Positions 478-7,738 of a stretch of DNA of 7,738 nucleotides are shown in pieces; within the stretch, counting starts at the first letter, position 1; each line of letters starts with the position of its first letter. The DNA lies in the IMG/VR virus record IMGVR_UViG_2802429219_000018; one strand, given 5' to 3'. The notes under the pieces were generated by a model, which worked only from the letters and a program-made list of their open reading frames with translations, was not told where the DNA came from and searched no databases. Both the position numbers and the translations under genes were made by a program. This stretch comes from a virus (Duplodnaviria; Heunggongvirae; Uroviricota; Caudoviricetes).

Positions 478-2616
478 CTATTCATCCAGTTCATCATCCA
501 TAAGTAATGCATACGCTCTTAACTGCTTACCGTTCAGATGCTTTATTCTGGGTGTTCTTGTTTGCCACCCTTTACCACTTGAAGGGCGTTTAAGCATATT
601 TGCCCCATGAAGCACACTTGCAGCATGGTTTGCATCAAATCCACTTGCCACCTCGGCTTTAAAAACAGCCGGAAGAACATAAAAAGTTATAGCATCATCA
701 AGGTTTGATTTTCCTTTATTTTTATAACCAGCAAGGTTATGAATACTCATCTGGCTCAATTCATCAAAATCAACAGGTACAAAACGACTAATGCTATTTG
801 CTGTAAGAAATGATGTTGCCTGCTCAATAATCTGCTCGTTTTCCTTATTGCCTGTCCCGAACTCAGCCACCCATACATTAAAAACATGCTGTAACGCATC
901 TCGACACGCTAATGAGTCCCATCCAGTAATATGTTCAGAAAGCAGCATTGCACATTCCATAACTGCAAAACGATCCTTTACTCTATGAACTTGCTCGCCG
1001 TAATGTTGCGGAATAAGAGAATCCCATCGCTCTAACGCTCGTTTATAAGCCTCCTTCGCTTCCTGTTGATGATCTGCAAGCCATCTGATCCACTCACGAC
1101 CCGCCGCGCCATAATTTTCTTTCCATGCTGCTTCCAGTGCCTTCGCATGTTTCTCTCCATTTTCGTATCCATGAAATTCAGTTGGTCGAGATACAGGGAT
1201 ATTCAGTAATCTAACGAGCTGTCCAGCTTTTACTTTGATTCCTGCTCCAGCGAGAAAAGTTTCAATACTTTTCTCTCCTGTACTGATAACAACCGTTTCG
1301 AAATATTTAATTTCACGGTTCCCACCATCAGGACTTCCCTGTAATTTCCCTTTTCCATTAAAAAGAGTATAAGACGACGTAAATACACTTCTGGCACTGG
1401 AAGCCTGCTCTATTTCATCAAGAGCCAATAAACAGTGATTATGTGATTCTGCTTCGTTAGTTATACCCAACGCCGTTCCATACCAGGAAAGCCGTTGTTG
1501 TTTTGGAATTCCATACAGACTTGAGGCAAAATCTTCCGCAGTTGTTTTTCCCGCTGTACTTTGCGCATACAGATGCACACCAAAGCCATCAGCACCAATA
1601 ACACCAATCAGCGGGGCTGCCAGTGACGTAGCAGCCGCCAGCATCTGAAACGGGTTTTTATATGCCAATTTTGCAACATTCTCGCGCCAGCTTTCAGTAG
1701 TTCCTTTTACGCGATAAGCCAGCCTTGAGGCACTTCCTCCGGTAAACATAACTGGGGTTTCAGGCTCACCAATAACATCACCATTTGGCATGATGTAGAT
1801 GCCACCAAACCACCCGGAACGTTGTGTAGCCGTATACTGTAACCCTTTCTGAGCTTCATTCTGTATCCAGTCAGATAGAAGCTCTCTGGCCTTATTTTGT
1901 GTAGTAATTTTTAATCCCCAGTCTTTAAGGCGTGACCATCCCTGAGGGGTTCCAATCATTCCGGCTCTAATACAATGAGTAACCATTTCCCCCCTGAATT
2001 TCCAGCGTAAAGCAATAAACATTGCGTCATTTTCTCTATCAAATCCTTCGCCTAACACTTCCAGAGGTGAGCACATCCATTGACCATGGCGGGTTATCTC
2101 TCCTGAACGTTCAATTTTTGGGGTAACCCAGTACATACCTACTGGATCCGCATTTATACGCAATTCAACGTAAGGCGCCAGTTCATCGCGTGCCTGATTA
2201 CTTGCAGATTGCACAATATCCGTCATCGACACTTCTCCGCTCTCTACCTGTTCACGGATCCGTTGCAAGTAGTCGCGCCAGTTCTCCGGCTCCCGGTCGG
2301 TGATGCCTTTGTATAATTTCGCATCCTGTACGCCAGCCAGCGCCAGCTTTTCAGCAATAGCGTTGATCTGAATTGGCTCCATTTCCCCCGCGATATAAAC
2401 ACGCGCAAAGCGGCGCTCATCGTCAATAATGCGGATATTCGCCAGGTCTGCCAGTTGCTTTGGCCCCAGGTAAACAGGTGGTACGTTATCGCCGTGTTTT
2501 CGTCCTTCGCTTTCAATCCAGTGTTGAGCATGGGAGTAAGCGTCCGTCCCGGCAAAAATGATTACCTCGGTGAATTTATCCTTCGGCTGATATTTTAAAT
2601 TCGGTGCGTTTTTCAC
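478..2616 (-). CDS. Satellite replication initiator: primase/helicase-type protein with a DUF927-like core and a P-loop NTPase domain (712 aa)
   Basis: Long ORF with a GTG start preceded by GGAGG 6 nt upstream, and a 4-nt GTGA overlap with the upstream ORF's stop. The central segment GMYWVTPK...WMCSPLEVLGEGFDREN...FIALRWKF resembles the DUF927 core. Walker A-like AQSTAGKTT and Walker B-like CLLALDEIEQ are present. Cognate iterons follow the stop codon (TAG at 478-480). The family call is from memory, not from an HMM search. Confidence 0.9.
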   Translation of the reverse strand: MKNAPNLKYQPKDKFTEVIIFAGTDAYSHAQHWIESEGRKHGDNVPPVYLGPKQLADLANIRIIDDERRFARVYIAGEMEPIQINAIAEKLALAGVQDAKLYKGITDREPENWRDYLQRIREQVESGEVSMTDIVQSASNQARDELAPYVELRINADPVGMYWVTPKIERSGEITRHGQWMCSPLEVLGEGFDRENDAMFIALRWKFRGEMVTHCIRAGMIGTPQGWSRLKDWGLKITTQNKARELLSDWIQNEAQKGLQYTATQRSGWFGGIYIMPNGDVIGEPETPVMFTGGSASRLAYRVKGTTESWRENVAKLAYKNPFQMLAAATSLAAPLIGVIGADGFGVHLYAQSTAGKTTAEDFASSLYGIPKQQRLSWYGTALGITNEAESHNHCLLALDEIEQASSARSVFTSSYTLFNGKGKLQGSPDGGNREIKYFETVVISTGEKSIETFLAGAGIKVKAGQLVRLLNIPVSRPTEFHGYENGEKHAKALEAAWKENYGAAGREWIRWLADHQQEAKEAYKRALERWDSLIPQHYGEQVHRVKDRFAVMECAMLLSEHITGWDSLACRDALQHVFNVWVAEFGTGNKENEQIIEQATSFLTANSISRFVPVDFDELSQMSIHNLAGYKNKGKSNLDDAITFYVLPAVFKAEVASGFDANHAASVLHGANMLKRPSSGKGWQTRTPRIKHLNGKQLRAYALLMDDELDE

Positions 2617-2903
2617 TTCTTACCTCCCGCAACCAACATTGCCCGGATTTTTTTAATATTCGTGGCTGCACGTCTCGCCACCGCCTGTTGTTTGTTTTCC
2701 ACCAGAATAAAATCACGCTCAAACTGACGGCGCGGCATTACGCAGTCATATTCGTAAGCCTCACGGCGGTAGGTGATATTGCCTGGCGTAACGTGACGAA
2801 TAACCACTCGTCCCCCACGTCTGGTGTCGCGGTAAATATCTCCGTGTCTGATTTCAGGCCGAGAGAGACCGCTGGCAGTAAAGCCAGAATTTTTCTTTTT
2901 CAT
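2613..2903 (-). CDS. Small basic protein, 96 aa, function unknown (GDIYRD...VTPGNITYRREAYEYDCVMPRRQFERDF resembles DUF4222-type small phage proteins; unverified)
   Basis: ATG at 2903, 4 nt after the upstream ORF's stop. AGGA lies about 11 nt upstream. Its stop overlaps the primase GTG (GTGA). It sits in the same coupled operon. Confidence 0.65.
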   Translation of the reverse strand: MKKKNSGFTASGLSRPEIRHGDIYRDTRRGGRVVIRHVTPGNITYRREAYEYDCVMPRRQFERDFILVENKQQAVARRAATNIKKIRAMLVAGGKK

Positions 2904-2907
2904 GGTT

Positions 2908-3108
2908 TTATTTTCCTGTCAGCAGTTCCGGTTTTATTCCTGCACTAATACAGAGTTCAGAAAAGCCTTCTGCCGTACTTACAATTTCATTATTTCGCAG
3001 CCGGCATTGTGATTTCACTTTCCCTTTATCCAGGTAAACCAGTATGCGTCCGGTGAAATCCTCTGGCACATTCAGGGTAATTGTCATTGTTGCTGGCTTA
3101 TTACCCAT
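2908..3108 (-). CDS. Hypothetical 66-aa protein carrying one copy of an 'FTG' repeat domain
   Basis: The ATG overlaps the upstream stop as ATGGGTAA (3101-3108). A G8 run (complement of C8 at 3115-3122) sits 6 nt upstream and is SD-like. The domain FTGRILVYLDKGKVKSQCRLRNNEIVSTAEGFSELCISAG is paralogous to two segments of the upstream 122-aa ORF. An alternative start at M8 cannot be excluded. Confidence 0.6.
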   Translation of the reverse strand: MGNKPATMTITLNVPEDFTGRILVYLDKGKVKSQCRLRNNEIVSTAEGFSELCISAGIKPELLTGK

Positions 3109-3469
3109 GGTTCACCCCCCCCTGAATGACCTGATAACCGCAACTGGTCAGCAATTCGATAAATTCCGGCAGTGTGCCGAAACAGCAATCATCACGCAGC
3201 CGTTCGCGGGATACCTCGACGCCGTTTTCGTAGTGACTCACCATGCGTCCGGTAAAATGCAGATCATCATCGTGATGGCACGTTAACGGCTTAATCAGTC
3301 GCGCACGTTCCGCCAGTTCCAGCAATGCTTCAACGCTTCCGGCAATTGCACCATCCGGCAGGTGGTAATTACGCACTATGCGCCCGTTCTCCACATTGAC
3401 CAGCAACTGCCCGGTAAATTTCTCGTCAAACTGAATGCTGTTAAGGTCAGAAATTGACAGGTTATGCAT
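3101..3469 (-). CDS. Hypothetical 122-aa protein with two tandem copies of the 'FTG' repeat domain
   Basis: ATG at 3469 with GGAGG 6 nt upstream. It overlaps the upstream stop as ATGCATAA (3462-3469). The internal repeat is FTGQLLVNVENGRIV...GSVEALLELAERA (from aa 18) versus FTGRMVSHYENGVEV...GTLPEFIELLTSCG (from aa 72). Confidence 0.7.
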   Translation of the reverse strand: MHNLSISDLNSIQFDEKFTGQLLVNVENGRIVRNYHLPDGAIAGSVEALLELAERARLIKPLTCHHDDDLHFTGRMVSHYENGVEVSRERLRDDCCFGTLPEFIELLTSCGYQVIQGGVNHG

Positions 3470-3665
3470 GGTGCACCTCCTGGCGAATACGGGCAGCGAA
3501 TACCATCACGCAGCCATCAGGAGATTGCTGACGCGCTTCCTGTTCGCTGATGGCCTCGATGTGAATTACGCGCGGTTGTGCCGTACTCAGGGCGATAAAA
3601 CGCCAGATATATTTATTCAGGTTGTGCGAGTCCCGCCCTTGCGGGTGTGTGGTATGATTTCTCAT
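3462..3665 (-). CDS. Icd-like / Ash-like small protein, 67 aa (uses an internal start of the 331-aa track ORF)
   Basis: ATG at 3665 is preceded by GAGGT (3674..3670). The sequence MRNHTTHPQGRDSHNLNKYIWRFIALSTAQPRVIHIEAISEQEARQQSPDGCVMVFAARIRQEVHHA fits the pattern I recall for phage Icd-like proteins (aromatic-x-W/F-x-F-x-A ... A-x-SE-x-EAR ... F-A-A-R). It is the first gene of the coupled operon. The family call is from memory. Confidence 0.65.
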   Translation of the reverse strand: MRNHTTHPQGRDSHNLNKYIWRFIALSTAQPRVIHIEAISEQEARQQSPDGCVMVFAARIRQEVHHA

Positions 3666-3745
3666 AGCTACCTCGATACTGTTGCTATCGTTGGTGGTTA
3701 GAAGCCCGGTTAGTGTTAGCGCACTGCCGGGTTTCGTCGTTTTTA
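3665..3745 (+). ncRNA. Candidate ~80-nt cis-antisense RNA covering the SD/start of the Icd-like gene
   Basis: There is a plus-strand extended -10 (TG-g-TATGAT, 3650-3658) inside the Icd-like coding region, which predicts a start near 3665. The RNA has a 5' hairpin (cgata-ctgttgc-tatcg, 3674-3690) and then a plus-oriented terminator hairpin (3701-3735) with a U-rich tail to 3745. No plus-strand gene feeds this terminator. The start site and expression are untested. Confidence 0.35.
3701..3745 (+). terminator. Plus-strand-oriented intrinsic terminator-like hairpin in the leader region of the replication operon
   Basis: The stem pairs gaagcccggttagtg with cactgccgggtttc (14 pairs, one bulged U, 6-nt loop ttagcg), followed by gtcgttttta. 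Two of the pairs are G-U on the plus RNA (3704/3732 and 3711/3726) and would be C-A mismatches on the minus RNA. The U-rich tail exists only in the plus orientation. Confidence 0.45.
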
Positions 3746-3754
3746 TGAATCGAT

Positions 3755-3860
3755 CATTGTGAGATACATAGTCATCACAATGTGAGATATACATTATATT
3801 GTGGTGATATACATTGCAAGTGTTTTTATATCTCACTTTTGTGTATAGTGATATACACAT
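3755..3860. promoter_or_regulatory. Operator array and divergent promoter region between the RHH gene (+) and the Icd-like/primase operon (-)
   Basis: Five copies of GTGA(G)ATA(TA)CA: 3759-3770, 3782-3795, 3804-3815, an inverted copy at 3827-3836, and 3848-3860. They are phased at about 22 bp. An 8-bp inverted repeat CATTGTGA/TCACAATG lies at 3755-3762 and 3775-3782. A perfect minus-strand TATAAT (3798..3793) has a palindromic TTGCAA (3814-3819) 15 bp upstream. A plus-strand TATAGT lies at 3844-3849. The promoter assignments are tentative. Confidence 0.65.
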
Positions 3861-3879
3861 AACTAATTGGTGATTAACT

Positions 3880-4182
3880 ATGTCTGTATACAAAAATGCA
3901 AAATCGCAAATGACAACGATCAGGGTTCCCCACGATGTTATGGAGGGTATGGAATCCGTAAAACTGGACGGCGAAAGCAACGCCGGATTCATAGTAACCG
4001 CCATGCGTGGTGAGATCGCCCGCCGCCAGGCAGAAGGAAGAGGAGAAAATCCCCTGGTTTCTTCGCTCGATGCACTGGCGCAGGTGGAAAAAATCGGAGT
4101 CAAAGCAGCCGAGGAGATCGGGCAGCTCGTCACCGTCGCGCGTGAAGAACTCCAGCGCCGCAAGGCCAAAGAACAGGAGTAG
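3880..4182 (+). CDS. Ribbon-helix-helix-like small DNA-binding protein (YlcI/YnfO-like), 100 aa; candidate island repressor
   Basis: The N-terminal segment TTIRVPHDVMEGMESVKLDGESNAGFIVTAMRGEIARR has a strand-helix-helix pattern like the YlcI segment IRFPNQMIEQINIALEQKGSGNFSAWVIEACRRRL (from memory). The C-terminal half is charged and helical. It is the only plus-strand gene and sits next to the operator array. The antisense ORFs over it (3874-4200 and 3462-4457) are Ser/Cys-rich shadow-type sequence. Confidence 0.7.
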   Translation: MSVYKNAKSQMTTIRVPHDVMEGMESVKLDGESNAGFIVTAMRGEIARRQAEGRGENPLVSSLDALAQVEKIGVKAAEEIGQLVTVAREELQRRKAKEQE

Positions 4183-4457
4183 TTGATCAGCACCGGGCAA
4201 CCAGAAAAAATCGTATCAGTCGCGCTACCAGCAAAATTTTTTGCTTTCCGGACAGCGTGGCCAACGGCATTTTGCAGCAAAATATTCTGCATTTCTGGCG
4301 TGCTGTAGTAACGGTGATCAGCGCCTTCACATTGAACGAACTTGTCGCTAAAATTCACCCATATAGCAAACATCGCGGTGCTACAGGTAATTCGTTCACA
4401 AAGGCGCTCCGGCAACGGGGCGCTTTCTCTTTTTGTAACGGTCAGAGCGTTACACAT
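4183..4457 (-). other. 5' segment of the long minus-strand ORF: a translationally coupled start with no local stop codon
   Basis: The ATG at 4457 overlaps the ant-like stop as ATGTGTAA, with GGAGG 9 nt upstream. The first ~90 codons (MCNALTVTKRESAPLPERLCERITCSTAMFAIWVNFSDKFVQCEGADHRYYSTPEMQNILLQNAVGHAVRKAKNF...) look protein-like and have no competing gene. The frame stays open to 3462, so the 3' end is undefined. Confidence 0.3.
4401..4434 (+). terminator. Rho-independent terminator, plus-strand orientation, about 220 nt downstream of the RHH gene's stop
   Basis: aaggcgctccg-GCAA-cggggcgcttt forms an 11-bp stem (two G-U pairs on the plus RNA) with a GNRA tetraloop, followed by ctctttttg. 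The minus-strand equivalent has C-A mismatches and only a UUUGUG tail. Confidence 0.6.
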
Positions 4458-5250
4458 GGCTGTTTTCCTCCATGCGACGGGCTAACCAACGCTGCGAAAG
4501 ACGAATTAATTCAGCTTTCCGCTGGTGGTAGTCCTGGCCTAACTCAATCAGCGTGATATTGCTCTGCTCAAGGTAAGAAAGGTGCTCAAGCTGCAATGTG
4601 CTCATGTGGTCGCGTGGTTCGCCTGTGATGTCGTTCGCCTGCGCCCACTGTTTTGCAGTCATGCCACCCAGCACGATACGCGCCAGCATGTTCGCTTCCG
4701 TGGTGTAGTGGTGCTGGAGTGTGTTTTTACCCAGTTCAGCCCGGTACGCCTCCAGCGCGGCACACATTGGCTTAAAGTAGCTGGCAACTGTGATACGGGC
4801 TTTCAGTTCCCGGCGTAACGCTGCGGAACGCACTGGCGCTACCTTGTGTAGCTCCTCCTCGCATTTGATGAAGTACTGACGAACGGCGCGGCCCTGTTCG
4901 GTGCGTTCGACCATCGCCAGTTCTTTCGCCATGTTGATAGTGCTCAGGTAGTCGTGCTCTATACGTTGGCGAGATTTTGCGCTCACCGGATTGGGGGAGG
5001 TCAAATTTTCTACGAATTCAAAATCCACGCCCTTTTTAAATCCGTACTCATCAATGCGTCCTTTAATCCAGGTTGTGAAATCACGGCCTACCCCGAGCGC
5101 CTTATGCAACGCTCTGGCGCTAACAATATTGGTTTCACGCCCGCCAATAACGCCGGAAATAACCGGGATAATTTCGCCAAAATTTTGCAGATTCTGGTTT
5201 TCAGGCCGAACGAAGCCCTGCCCCTGTACGGGCGTTTTTGGAAATTTCAT
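4450..5250 (-). CDS. AntA/AntB-family phage antirepressor homolog, 266 aa
   Basis: ATG at 5250 with AGGAG 5 nt upstream. The N-terminal half (VSARALHKALGVGRDFTTWIKGRIDEYGFKKGVDF...INMAKELAMVERTEQGRAVRQYFIKCEEEL) matches the AntA domain pattern. The C-terminal half is helical and of uncertain family. Confidence 0.85.
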   Translation of the reverse strand: MKFPKTPVQGQGFVRPENQNLQNFGEIIPVISGVIGGRETNIVSARALHKALGVGRDFTTWIKGRIDEYGFKKGVDFEFVENLTSPNPVSAKSRQRIEHDYLSTINMAKELAMVERTEQGRAVRQYFIKCEEELHKVAPVRSAALRRELKARITVASYFKPMCAALEAYRAELGKNTLQHHYTTEANMLARIVLGGMTAKQWAQANDITGEPRDHMSTLQLEHLSYLEQSNITLIELGQDYHQRKAELIRLSQRWLARRMEENSHV

Positions 5251-5327
5251 AAAAACTCCTGCTATCGAATTAAGTTACTTTTATTTGCTGGTGGATAGCT
5301 GGGGGCAATAGCCCCGTAGCCATTTAA

Positions 5328-5525
5328 TCAGGTAGCTGTTCCGCGTGATTCCGCAATACGCTGATTAATCCACTCGTCAATTTCACTCTCAACGAAAGCA
5401 ATCGCTCGCGAGCCAATTTTTACAGGTTTAGGAAAACGCCCTTGGGCAATGAGTTTATAGATCCATGCCCTGCCATAGCCTGTACGGCGCATGGTTTCTG
5501 GCATACGAATTAAAGATTGTGACAT
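5328..5525 (-). CDS. alpA: AlpA-family (excisionase-like HTH) transcriptional regulator, 65 aa
   Basis: MSQSLIRMPETMRRTGYGRAWIYKLIAQGRFPKPVKIGSRAIAFVESEIDEWI is the classic AlpA/Phage_AlpA signature. I chose the internal ATG at 5525 (GGGAGA about 8 nt upstream) over the track start at 5594, because that start lies inside the palindromic operator. Confidence 0.85.
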   Translation of the reverse strand: MSQSLIRMPETMRRTGYGRAWIYKLIAQGRFPKPVKIGSRAIAFVESEIDEWINQRIAESRGTAT

Positions 5526-5590
5526 GATAATCGTCTCCCGTTGTTTATTGATGCCTACGGGAGACATTGAAGCAGGTAAGACATTGGATA

Positions 5591-5629
5591 TCACCGCAAT
5601 TGCGGTGAATGATACCGCAATTGCGGTAT
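5591..5629. promoter_or_regulatory. Twin 18-bp perfect palindromes (core ACCGCAATTGCGGT) upstream of alpA; putative dimer-binding operators
   Basis: TCACCGCAATTGCGGTGA (5591-5608) and ATACCGCAATTGCGGTAT (5612-5629) are each perfectly self-complementary. Their centres are exactly 21 bp apart. They lie between the 251-aa gene's stop (5640) and the alpA start (5525). Confidence 0.7.
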
Positions 5630-5639
5630 AGGACTACAA

Positions 5640-6395
5640 CTACGATTTAATTGATTTATTGGCTTCAGCAAACTTTGCTTCCAGCGTTCTTGAACTCATC
5701 CCCGGCTTACCTTCAAAATGTCCCAATAAATTACTAATAATAGAGCTTTGATTTTCGAATACAGATTGCTTAATACCAGCAGGTGAACGCCCTAACATTA
5801 GAAAAAGCAACCCTCCAATAATGTTTAAATATGTTGTTTCAGAACGTTGGTCAATGTTTTGCACGGAGTTATCAACCATTCGTCGTAGTGAATCACGTTC
5901 CCCTTGTAATTCGGAAATTTCATTTTTCTGCTGTTGGAAAGTCTTCATAGCATTATCTAAGCGAATATTAAGACGTTTGTTTTCAGCCTGAAGAGTTTGA
6001 TATGCCTCGACTGTAATTCCAGCATGTAACTGCTGCTCAACAGCATCAAAAAGGAAAGCTGGTTTTTGGTTGGGATAGTTTTTTGACATCCATGATTTCA
6101 GATCGGAATGGCGGACGGTTAAACGGTGCTTAGCAACCTGTTCTCCAGGTTGAACAGTTTTACCATCACGGCCATAAGGAATTTCACAATTATGGATTGC
6201 ATCTAAAATTTTCTCAGCATTAACACGCAAGCAAGGCCATTGAGGGAACATTCCAACGCTAGGTAAAACTCCATCTCCCACTCGCTCCAATATTAAAACT
6301 TCATGAGCAATTAAATTACACCAACGTAGCGCCGCTTCAATTGGAGTGTAATATGCCTTTTCAAGAGAACTACAGCTTTTTGAATTGTAAGTCAC
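5640..6395 (-). CDS. Orphan 251-aa protein (N-terminal domain + coiled coil + short hydrophobic helix + C-terminal tail), function unknown
   Basis: GTG start at 6395 with GAGGT 8 nt upstream. The next Met is aa 49, so the start is uncertain. No competing ORF covers it. A heptad-rich segment spans aa ~128-175 (EAYQTLQAENKRLNIRLDNAMKTFQQQKNEISELQGERDSLRRMV). A hydrophobic helix spans aa 189-202 (YLNIIGGLLFLMLG). It is markedly AT-rich compared with its flanks. Confidence 0.75.
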   Translation of the reverse strand: MTYNSKSCSSLEKAYYTPIEAALRWCNLIAHEVLILERVGDGVLPSVGMFPQWPCLRVNAEKILDAIHNCEIPYGRDGKTVQPGEQVAKHRLTVRHSDLKSWMSKNYPNQKPAFLFDAVEQQLHAGITVEAYQTLQAENKRLNIRLDNAMKTFQQQKNEISELQGERDSLRRMVDNSVQNIDQRSETTYLNIIGGLLFLMLGRSPAGIKQSVFENQSSIISNLLGHFEGKPGMSSRTLEAKFAEANKSIKS

Positions 6396-6523
6396 TCTGT
6401 GCTACCTCGCACCCTCTGTAAAAGTGGCTGTGCCAGCCCGCAGAGGTGTACGGGTTTTCAGGAGCGACCCTAGACACAGCCTTTTCTTAATCGCTCAAAG
6501 TCTACTACTGTATACTCAACCAG

Positions 6524-7738
6524 TCACCCGCATTTTCCGAACTCACCATGCACCACATTTCCGCCATGCTCGAGCGAATCCATATAATCGGCGTACCACT
6601 GAAGCATTTCCCGCCGTCCATCCAGATATTGCGCATGGTTGTATGTGCCACGAATTGAGTTTTTATCGACGTGTGCGAGCTGCGTCTCTATCCATGCGGT
6701 GTTATAGCCCTGCTCATGCAAAATGGTGCTCATGGTGTGCCGGAATCCATGACCAGTAACCTTTCCGTTATAGCCGATGCGTTTAAATACTTGGTTTATG
6801 CTAGCCTCGCTCATTGTTTTCCTTGGATCATTACGGCCGGGAAACATAAGCGGATAATTGCCAGTTAATTCTTTAATCTGCCCAATAAGAGAAAGAGCCT
6901 GCTTAGACAAAGGCACCACATGAGGGCGACGCATTTTCATCCGTGAAGCAGGTATCTCCCAGATAGCCTTGTTGAGATCGATTTCATCCCATAATGCACC
7001 GCGCAGTTCGCCAGTTCGCAAACCAGTGATAATCAGTAGACGAGCCGCCATAACAACCAATGCACTTCCTGAGTAACTGGACAATGCCTTGAAAAAATCA
7101 GGCAATTCTTTGGCTGTGAGGAAAGGATAATGATTAGATTCATGGCCTTGCATCGCGCTAGTAAGATCTGGGGCAGGGTTATACTCTGCGCGACCAGTGA
7201 CTATTGCATAGCGGAAAACTTCCCCACACCGCTGCCTCACTTTTTTGGCTTTTTCTGTAGCACCGCGCCCCTCGATGCGTCGCAGCACATTCAGAAGTTC
7301 AAGTGGTTTGATTTCGGCGATTGGTTTTTTGCCAATGTAAGGGAACACATCTTTGTTGAAGGCTTCGAGGATGTCTGAAGCATAACCAGCAGACCATTTT
7401 TTTAATTTGCTGCTGTGCCACTCAAGGGCAATATCTTTGAAGGTGTTGTTTAACTGCGTTTCCCGGGCAATCTTTTCCTCTCGTTTCGCTTCCATCGGAT
7501 CGATACCCCCAGCGATACCCCTTTTAGCTTCTTCACGTTTTGCACGAGCATCAGCCAAGGTAACTTCAGGATACACACCTAGTGCTAACAGCTTCTCTTT
7601 ACCAGCTACACGATACTTGAAGCGCCAATATTTTCCTCCACTAGGTTTTACCAAGAGATACAGACCACCACCATCAGCCAGCTTGTAAGCCTTCTCTTTT
7701 GGCTTGGCAGTGTCTATTTGACGGGCATTGAGTTTCAC
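6524..7738 (-). CDS. int: P4-type (DUF4102 N-terminal arm) tyrosine integrase, 404 aa as read; 5' end coincides with the window edge
   Basis: The N-terminus ARQIDTAKPKEKAYKLADGGGLYLLVKPSGGKYWRFKYR is typical of the P4/CP4 integrase family. Catalytic motifs are TGLRTGELR, GHGFRHT and RGTYNHAQY, and GEVFRYAIVTGRAEYNPAPDL is shared with IntS-like integrases. The first codon in the window is GTG. The true start may be here or a few codons beyond the window. Confidence 0.9.
   Translation of the reverse strand: MKLNARQIDTAKPKEKAYKLADGGGLYLLVKPSGGKYWRFKYRVAGKEKLLALGVYPEVTLADARAKREEAKRGIAGGIDPMEAKREEKIARETQLNNTFKDIALEWHSSKLKKWSAGYASDILEAFNKDVFPYIGKKPIAEIKPLELLNVLRRIEGRGATEKAKKVRQRCGEVFRYAIVTGRAEYNPAPDLTSAMQGHESNHYPFLTAKELPDFFKALSSYSGSALVVMAARLLIITGLRTGELRGALWDEIDLNKAIWEIPASRMKMRRPHVVPLSKQALSLIGQIKELTGNYPLMFPGRNDPRKTMSEASINQVFKRIGYNGKVTGHGFRHTMSTILHEQGYNTAWIETQLAHVDKNSIRGTYNHAQYLDGRREMLQWYADYMDSLEHGGNVVHGEFGKCG

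Follow-up and report, generated by a model that had tools for sequence, protein, structure and literature searches.

The AntA-domain gene behind alpA in an Escherichia coli phage satellite encodes a predicted Bro-network regulator with an exchangeable head

EcCIMP1, a phage-inducible chromosomal island (PICI) of E. coli MP1, has been experimentally mobilised, and its helper-dependent induction and packaging were shown with phage Kapi1 (PMC11773190). In EcCIMP1 and other Gram-negative PICIs, it is an already induced helper that switches on alpA (PMC11773190; 10.1101/2022.09.08.507074), and the published EcCIMP1 map labels a gene downstream of int and alpA 'antirepressor', by annotation (PMC11773190). 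The region between the int/alpA zone and the replication genes of Gram-negative PICIs has already been named the 'Bro zone' (PMC10111431). The Pseudomonas satellite PhiAH14b, with its int-alpA-hypothetical-Rha layout, was described in 2016 (PMC4936722), and AntA, Rha and BRO genes are listed together with YlcI/YnfO and Icd for Enterobacter PICIs and capsid-forming PICIs (cf-PICIs) (PMC13612085). Here we analysed a stretch of 7,738 nucleotides from virus record IMGVR_UViG_2802429219_000018 (hereafter the window), which comprises the regulatory and replication half of an EcCIMP1-like E. coli satellite of the Gram-negative PICI type, and within it the gene antA. An earlier note on this DNA had presented antA as a satellite-encoded antirepressor that may act on a helper prophage repressor or on the island's own ribbon-helix-helix (RHH) repressor.

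The position, architecture, modular swapping, selection and predicted fold of antA were established directly. Its features are as follows.

4450-5250, minus strand: antA, encoding a predicted AntA-domain Bro-network protein of 266 residues (open reading frame (ORF), Pfam AntA, 984 homologues, ratio of nonsynonymous to synonymous substitution rates (dN/dS))
5256-5260, minus strand: AGGAG ribosome-binding site of antA (read from the sequence)
4900-5181, minus strand: N-terminal module, residues 24-117, beta-hairpin and winged helix, variable and swappable
4735-4899, minus strand: predicted 55-residue helix, residues 118-172, basic with a net charge of +4 (model; charge count)
4453-4734, minus strand: conserved helical C-terminal domain, residues 173-266, shared with Rha, KilA-N and Bro-N proteins (PHROG 2657)

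The antA ORF is intact and begins with ATG. Reading along the minus strand, AGGAG (5260-5256) is followed by a 5-nt spacer, TTTTT, and by the ATG at 5250-5248. The length of 266 residues and the start are consistent with the family, in which M1 is invariant and a 99%-identical cluster of 266 residues exists. The 984 homologues are full length down to 65% identity and come from many Enterobacterales genera. The gene is under purifying selection (overall dN/dS 0.1-0.27), and in comparison with the closest relative the N-domain stands at 0.29 and the C-domain at 0.057. The otherwise closest island, that of E. coli SCU-104, carries a pseudogene with an internal stop as its antA counterpart (L001 15224-16072), indicating that the gene is dispensable for mere island maintenance.

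The end of alpA lies 77 nt before antA on the same, minus, strand. A promoter and terminator scan of this gap found neither, and a hairpin within it was not significant (fold z -1.45). The antA gene is probably co-transcribed with alpA and would be expected at the time of helper-triggered alpA activation, a timing known for the related EcCIMP1 (PMC11773190). The earlier view of an alpA-antA unit was right in placing antA after alpA and needs one correction, as an ORF of 251 residues (p251, 5640-6395) sits between int and alpA. Since the conserved int-alpA RNA motif is located upstream of p251 and not directly before alpA, the likely unit is p251-alpA-antA, with p251 probably its first gene, and the motif may control all three genes.

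The Pfam AntA domain (PF08346) was detected at residues 43-117 (E 1.2e-22), scoring 80.7 bits where the cutoff is 27 and spanning all 68 positions of the profile. Thus the earlier note was correct in reporting a clear N-terminal AntA domain, as it was on the AGGAG site 5 nt ahead of the ATG and on antA being the first gene after alpA. The domain makes up less than one third of the protein. PHROG families named 'anti-repressor Ant' match the protein at E 8.6e-39, NCBIfam gave no match, and the C-terminal half gave no Pfam match even at E<=10. This C-terminal half is the better conserved of the two. Residues 126-266, compared with 1.84 billion representative proteins, returned 270 clusters, in which the match is nearly always C-terminal in proteins of 210-290 residues. 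The heads found among 106 full-length proteins with this C-domain were Phage_pRha (47), AntA (27), KilA-N (22) and Bro-N (2). Judged by sequence, the AntA protein belongs to the Bro network of domain-swapping phage proteins. The 55-residue helix between head and C-domain is likely a dimerisation or linker helix, and the protein as a whole is basic (pI 9.3).

The genomic setting of antA was followed in a scan of Enterobacterales with one genome per species, which returned 52 loci, in 51 of which antA was re-found. A same-strand alpA is present no more than 1.3 kb upstream in 39 of the 51 loci, an integrase upstream in 38 and a primase downstream in 41. An additional gene of 143 residues separates alpA from antA in 29, an Ash or Icd gene directly follows antA in 28, and a YlcI-type RHH gene is present in just 8. 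The prevailing order is int-alpA-(143 aa)-AntA-(Ash/Icd)-primase, in a single direction in most islands. In the window as well, antA has the int/alpA zone on one side and the primase zone on the other, in the same orientation, and it combines a Bro-network head (AntA) with domain swapping among its relatives, as described for the Bro zone. The slot behind this alpA is filled in E. coli by AntA, Rha, a GIY-YIG nuclease or a hypothetical protein. The GIY-YIG nuclease gene was seen in one island (hit H196) and is reminiscent of CapR, a protein of the PICI-like element (PLE). Some E. coli islands add a Bro-N gene that overlaps the antA stop codon (L061 3451-4008, L062 3451-4008).

Only five loci lack this satellite context; all are from Edwardsiella and resemble phage EPP-1. 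EPP-1 is the single sequenced phage with a full-length homologue, which is encoded between endolysin and Rz, beside GNAT and helix-turn-helix genes, and this location rules out an immI-like setting for it. The C-domain itself was found in 35 of 50,697 phage records, mostly in Rha genes after the lysis cassette of P22-like phages.

Modular swapping is seen directly in two islands, those of STEC346 and STEC719, which are 99.3-99.8% identical either side of a replacement of ~650 bp that lies wholly inside the antA ORF (L002 16519-17176 versus L004 6046-6694, equivalent to window positions ~4500-5150). The replacement exchanges an AntA head and its C-domain for a Rha head and a C-domain of ~40% identity, retaining the first ~33 and the last 16 residues of the protein. 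One junction follows the conserved 'IIPVISG' and the other precedes 'QRWLARRMEENSHV'; these conserved ends look like recombination anchors. No other site in these two islands is altered alongside the head.

The AntA allele varies independently of the neighbouring RHH gene and its operators. AntA and Rha alleles with just 36% overall identity are found beside the same RHH cassette, and AntA alleles 90-95% identical adjoin two unrelated cassettes, a YlcI type (window, SCU-104) and an Arc-like type (STEC346), whose operators differ. SCU-104 carries the RHH cassette of the window with a different AntA sub-variant. As the AntA allele does not co-vary with the RHH/operator cassette, a dedicated AntA-RHH pair was rejected; free reassortment, together with the presence of RHH in only 8 of the 51 loci, makes such a partnership unlikely. 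The suggestion that AntA targets the island's own RHH repressor is therefore disfavoured. A specificity partner outside the island, i.e. the helper phage, plausibly fits better.

The name 'antirepressor' itself comes only from the domain name and is supported by no defining feature of such proteins. The ANT/KilAC domain (PF03374) was not matched at E<=10 on either half of the AntA protein, and Pfam found neither P22_AR_N nor P22_AR_C in it. P1 Ant1, for which repressor binding is on record, matches KilAC/ANT only and has no AntA domain, and P1 KilA also has KilAC/ANT. Comparison of the AntA protein with Ant1 gave a BLASTP E value of 0.18, tblastn of Ant1 against the window gave E values of at least 1.6, and P4 Epsilon has no homologue in the window (best tblastn E 1.5). 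When P4 Epsilon, orf151 and Eta and P1 Ant1 and KilA were compared with the six-frame translated window, none matched; only P1 Icd did, at the Icd-like ORF. The arrangement expected from immI-like control, ant behind an Arc-type RHH gene and under a promoter governed by Mnt/Arc, was not found either, as the RHH gene of the window is convergent with antA and faces the Icd-primase operon. The Rfam C4 and isrK immunity RNAs expected from the P1/P4 analogy gave no match in the window at E<=1.

The Ant protein of Stx phages was named antirepressor because its C-terminus resembles P22 Ant (PMC3064807). A relative of this Ant that we examined consists of an AntA head and P22_AR_C and shares only the head with the AntA protein. 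Similarly, a Klebsiella phage protein has an AntA head 60% identical to that of the AntA protein, followed by a C-terminal KilAC that is absent here. Overall, the N-halves of the AntA protein and of phage proteins annotated Ant are 41-60% identical. The feature shared with Ant proteins would thus be a head with a predicted DNA-binding winged-helix fold, and the label 'antirepressor' is not borne out.

An AlphaFold (AF2) monomer model of the AntA protein (me5071b6f24dd; mean predicted local distance difference test score (pLDDT) 79.7) shows a beta-hairpin and winged helix at residues 31-114, one helix at 118-172 and a helical bundle at 179-264. Foldseek comparison of the model with the PDB gave full-length dimers of DdrC, which binds DNA, as the only significant matches (E 6e-6, probability 1.0). 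A search of solved structures by sequence gave chance matches only, such as ApoE (E > 0.3). The comparison assigns the N-domain of the model an APSES/DdrC-type winged-helix fold. DdrC of Deinococcus radiodurans (7QVB, 7UDI) resembles the model over both domains, with hairpin and winged helix, long helix and helical bundle. In DdrC, the order of elements is hairpin, winged helix, linker helices and a domain-swapped four-helix bundle, the swap of which forms the dimer, and the protein has been described as lacking structural homologues (PMC9303277). DdrC is a host DNA-damage protein without phage context, and its identity with the AntA protein is 15-17%. As it is the best and sole strong two-domain structural match, the model suggests a distant link between DdrC and phage proteins of the Rha/AntA type.

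We tentatively favour, at somewhat below an even chance, a reading in which the p251-alpA-antA unit yields the AntA protein as a dimeric regulator of the Bro network, which acts in trans on DNA or a regulator of the helper. In this scheme antA would be the distal gene of a helper-inducible unit in an EcCIMP1-like PICI, and its product would appear only after the helper phage switches alpA on. Like DdrC, the protein would form dimers by way of its long helix and C-terminal helical bundle, and it would bind nucleic acid through the hairpin-preceded winged helix and the basic helix. Its target would lie outside the island, most likely in helper-phage DNA or a helper regulator, and the outcome would be helper development that is tuned or disturbed, as with the PLE Bro-network protein CapR. 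The exchangeable head (AntA, Rha, KilA-N, Bro-N, GIY-YIG) would decide which helper is recognised, with the conserved C-domain as common effector or dimerisation module. Here we infer co-transcription, dimerisation, DNA binding and the helper as target. There is a precedent in satellite Bro-network proteins that act on helper promoters, CapR being the example summarised in PMC10111431, and a helper-directed role would be reasonable on present comparisons.

Several observations weigh against this reading. Of five AF2 models, a single one was confident (79.7 versus 44-65), the underlying alignment was shallow (24 sequences at >=65% identity), and the fold match to DdrC has a low template modelling (TM) score of 0.37-0.43, because the domain arrangement differs. 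The winged helix of DdrC is acidic and is believed to make no contact with DNA (PMC9303277), and the charges of the N- and C-domains of the AntA protein are near neutral. A protein target, such as a helper repressor, would accord equally well with a swapped head, and no binding site or partner of the AntA protein was identified. The full-length relatives in EPP-1 and the C-domain relatives in P22-like phages indicate that the function is not specific to satellites. For functional tests of a satellite AntA, Rha or Bro gene at this position, literature searches gave annotations only, and they turned up no experiment on a protein with this architecture.

A true helper antirepressor, which would bind and inactivate a CI/C2-type repressor of a resident or incoming helper and so reinforce induction or block helper lysogeny, seems unlikely. 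P4 Epsilon acts in this manner on P2 C, as does RS1 RstC on CTX RstR, and satellite-encoded helper antirepressors are an established concept in its favour. It also draws on the likeness of the N-half to N-halves of Ant-annotated phage proteins with KilAC or P22_AR_C ends, and on the head swap in otherwise identical islands, which suggests a specificity determinant for an outside partner. These points are set against the missing domains of proven antirepressors (ANT/KilAC of P1 Ant1; P22_AR_C), the lack of similarity to P1 Ant1 or P4 Epsilon and the predicted APSES/DdrC-type fold of the shared N-domain; moreover, the Pfam name AntA stems from annotated proteins that are not known to have been tested. 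The alpA operons of characterised Gram-negative PICIs fire only once the helper has been induced (PMC11773190), which makes derepression largely redundant. With the helper already induced when alpA fires, forcing its induction would be redundant, whereas blocking the lysogeny of an infecting helper would not. Hence, of the proposal that the satellite inactivates a helper repressor, the outside target remains plausible and the forced induction of the helper is weakened by alpA timing. We consider it very unlikely that the protein serves the island internally, by antagonising the RHH repressor or activating the 3755-3862 promoters, so that the Icd-primase operon is coupled to alpA expression, or by assisting excision or replication. 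In the window, a separate promoter region next to the RHH gene serves the replication operon, so that on this account some product of the alpA unit must open it; antA sits between the integration and replication zones and is as conserved as the primase among EcCIMP1-like elements (PMC11773190). Yet AlpA itself is the documented master activator (PMC11773190), and the YlcI-type RHH is confined to 8 of the 51 loci, most islands running alpA-143aa-AntA-Ash/Icd-primase in one direction. The near-identical AntA alleles beside unrelated RHH cassettes and operators, and the same cassette beside AntA or Rha heads, likewise speak against an internal role, as do full-length homologues within a phage lysis cassette, where such an island function does not exist.

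The prospect is similarly slim that the AntA protein is an anti-phage interference or defence effector that inhibits helper or competing phages and contributes to the superinfection immunity of EcCIMP1. EcCIMP1 confers immunity to Kapi1 without any known defence system (PMC11773190), the phage rha genes of phi80 and P22 are cited in PMC4936722 as inhibiting the growth of phage in integration host factor (IHF) mutants, and the slot after alpA behaves as a variable hotspot. The C-domain also matches the PADLOC family PDC-S22 (E 3e-10), although this family is a candidate defence family and the match is limited to 85 of its 281 profile positions (176-260). In this lineage, however, antA is core and not accessory, and its C-domain is under strong purifying, not diversifying, selection. 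A defence role overlaps the helper-directed regulator that we favour without excluding it.

A broader proposal, possible though doubtful, is that AntA, Rha or KilA-N heads joined to this C-domain form a widespread family of DdrC-like dimeric DNA binders, which enterobacterial satellites deploy as a helper-specific plug-in trans-regulator in the helper-triggered alpA operon. If so, head exchange by recombination would retarget a satellite to another helper, for example to block its lysogeny or to retime helper genes, and could also account for the helper immunity of EcCIMP1. If the swappable head sets helper specificity, it would offer a simple handle on satellite host range and helper interference. 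The antA gene is among the most conserved components of a very common E. coli satellite lineage. The main upshot is a corrected label: 'antirepressor' is here an annotation inherited from the name of a domain, and relief of the island's own RHH repressor is unlikely.

The remaining features of the window support its assignment to a satellite. Int, alpA and primase are present, and the regulatory half holds no phage structural or lysis genes; the window stops inside the island, and the distal half was viewed in relatives only.

6524-7738, minus strand: tyrosine integrase (Pfam Phage_integrase, Arm-DNA-bind_3, Phage_int_M)
6412-6480, minus strand: int-alpA RNA motif (Rfam RF02996; 49.8 bits, gathering score 35.8; E 3e-8)
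5640-6395, minus strand: p251, ORF of 251 residues between int and alpA (ORF call)
5328-5594, minus strand: alpA (Pfam Phage_AlpA, E 2.5e-19), with a 65-residue form at 5328-5525, as RefSeq annotates in relatives
4401-4426: GC-rich hairpin just beyond the antA stop codon, with a T-run on the plus strand, closing two convergent units (terminator scan; invariant in four islands)
3880-4182, plus strand: YlcI/YnfO-type RHH gene, convergent with antA (NCBIfam NF041551, E 5e-20)
3755-3862: divergent promoter region with ~5 repeats of GTGA(G/T)ATA(T)ACAT (repeat search)
3462-3665, minus strand: Icd-like ORF (67-residue form), first gene of the replication operon (P1 Icd tblastn E 4.7e-5; RefSeq annotation in relatives)
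478-3469, minus strand: remaining replication operon, with a 122-residue ORF, a 66-residue ORF, DUF4222 and DUF927 primase/helicase

The integrase, int-alpA RNA, Icd-like ORF, DUF4222 and DUF927 primase/helicase uphold the satellite context proposed earlier, and the layout likewise confirms that the ant-like and icd-like genes lie in separate transcription units. Many related loci conserve the int-alpA RNA motif. For p251, searches of Pfam, PHROG, NCBIfam and PADLOC yielded no family, only a weak coiled-coil-like match; this ORF is conserved in the E. coli SCU-104 and E. ruysiae islands (L001, L007). ORFs of similar size (265 residues) occupy the p251 slot in tRNA-Gly islands. In the closest genomes such islands adjoin tRNA-Thr/proA or other tRNA sites. 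DNA of the lineage matches 267 of 5,426 complete genomes, making this a very common E. coli satellite lineage. None of the complete E. coli genomes holds 80% of the window in one piece, and the element is therefore a mosaic of known modules.

The GTGA(G/T)ATA(T)ACAT repeats, probably the RHH operators, run in both orientations and take up the interval that separates the YlcI-type RHH gene from the Icd-like operon. At this position, islands of the STEC346 type carry the unrelated Arc-like RHH gene and other repeats, amounting to an immunity-cassette swap. At the opposite flank of the RHH gene, a non-coding spacer (4183-4449) extends from the RHH stop to the antA stop and is 84-95% conserved where the neighbouring cassettes differ. 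It contains two palindromes of the GCAAAA..TTTTGC type, 46 nt apart, a promoter-like site at 4326-4354 (plus strand) and the strong hairpin at 4401-4426; the segment 4326-4395 occurs in two alleles. We rejected this 267-bp spacer as an AntA binding region, as it is equally conserved beside a Rha-type allele and hence not head-specific. A promoter-plus-terminator small RNA at 4358-4436 was also rejected, having a modest fold (z -2.3) and no trans target that beats shuffled controls.

A small-RNA candidate was noticed on the plus strand at ~3666-3745 (region 3650-3745), opposite the start of the Icd-like gene (3663-3678, minus strand). It has an extended -10 element, TGGTATGAT, and two hairpins followed by a U-run, with a fold z of -6.1 and a SymR-like Rfam match below threshold (32.9 bits). 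The candidate is 76-86% conserved across genera. An alignment of 12 sequences drawn from several genera has 96.8% of cells paired, with compensatory changes at 8 of 25 pairs; 0 of 500 shuffles reached these values, and slid controls paired at 35-55%. Near-invariant G-U pairs are compatible with the plus strand only. From its position, the RNA would cover both the ATG of the Icd-like gene and its ribosome-binding site, masking them. It would be the island's nearest analogue of the c4-icd logic, but as a true antisense RNA and not linked to antA. Pairing of the antisense RNA (3666-3710) with the p251 leader (-42.9 kcal/mol) was not better than in shuffles (-38.4 +/- 3.6) and is explained by a shared CGAGGTAGC ribosome-binding-site context.

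The EcCIMP1 'antirepressor' (WP_001019374.1), also annotated antA/AntB, is 60% identical to the AntA protein over 250 residues and has the same two-domain build. Its position downstream of int and alpA is also the same, and its PICI adjoins tRNA-Thr/proA like the closest relative of the window. EcCIMP1 differs in having a 143-residue gene between alpA and antA, in having all genes in one direction and in lacking a convergent RHH module. Among phage counterparts, EPP-1 gp54 is 64% identical over the full length, and the Rha proteins of P22-like phages (ES18 gp79, SPN9CC gp45) share the C-domain at ~32-35% identity, with mostly pRha heads; these are late-operon morons beside or within the lysis cassette, not members of an alpA unit. 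P4 Epsilon is alike in concept only, as a satellite early-region protein acting on the helper; it is 95 residues long, has an architecture unlike that of the AntA protein and shows no sequence similarity in the window. The c4-icd-ant linkage of P1 is not reproduced, as the icd-like gene and antA lie in separate units. The Bro zone (PMC10111431) provides the closest general description, with domain-swapping Bro-network genes and with AntA, the head seen in the window, among ten listed Pfam heads. The Bro zone and PhiAH14b papers describe the zone by annotation, without defining the Pfam-less C-domain or the DdrC-like fold, and their example, P4 Eta, is an Ash-family protein whose counterpart in the window is the Icd-like gene, not antA. 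The arrangement int/alpA-AntA-replication is thus already known, and the copy in the window is a further example, ordinary in kind.

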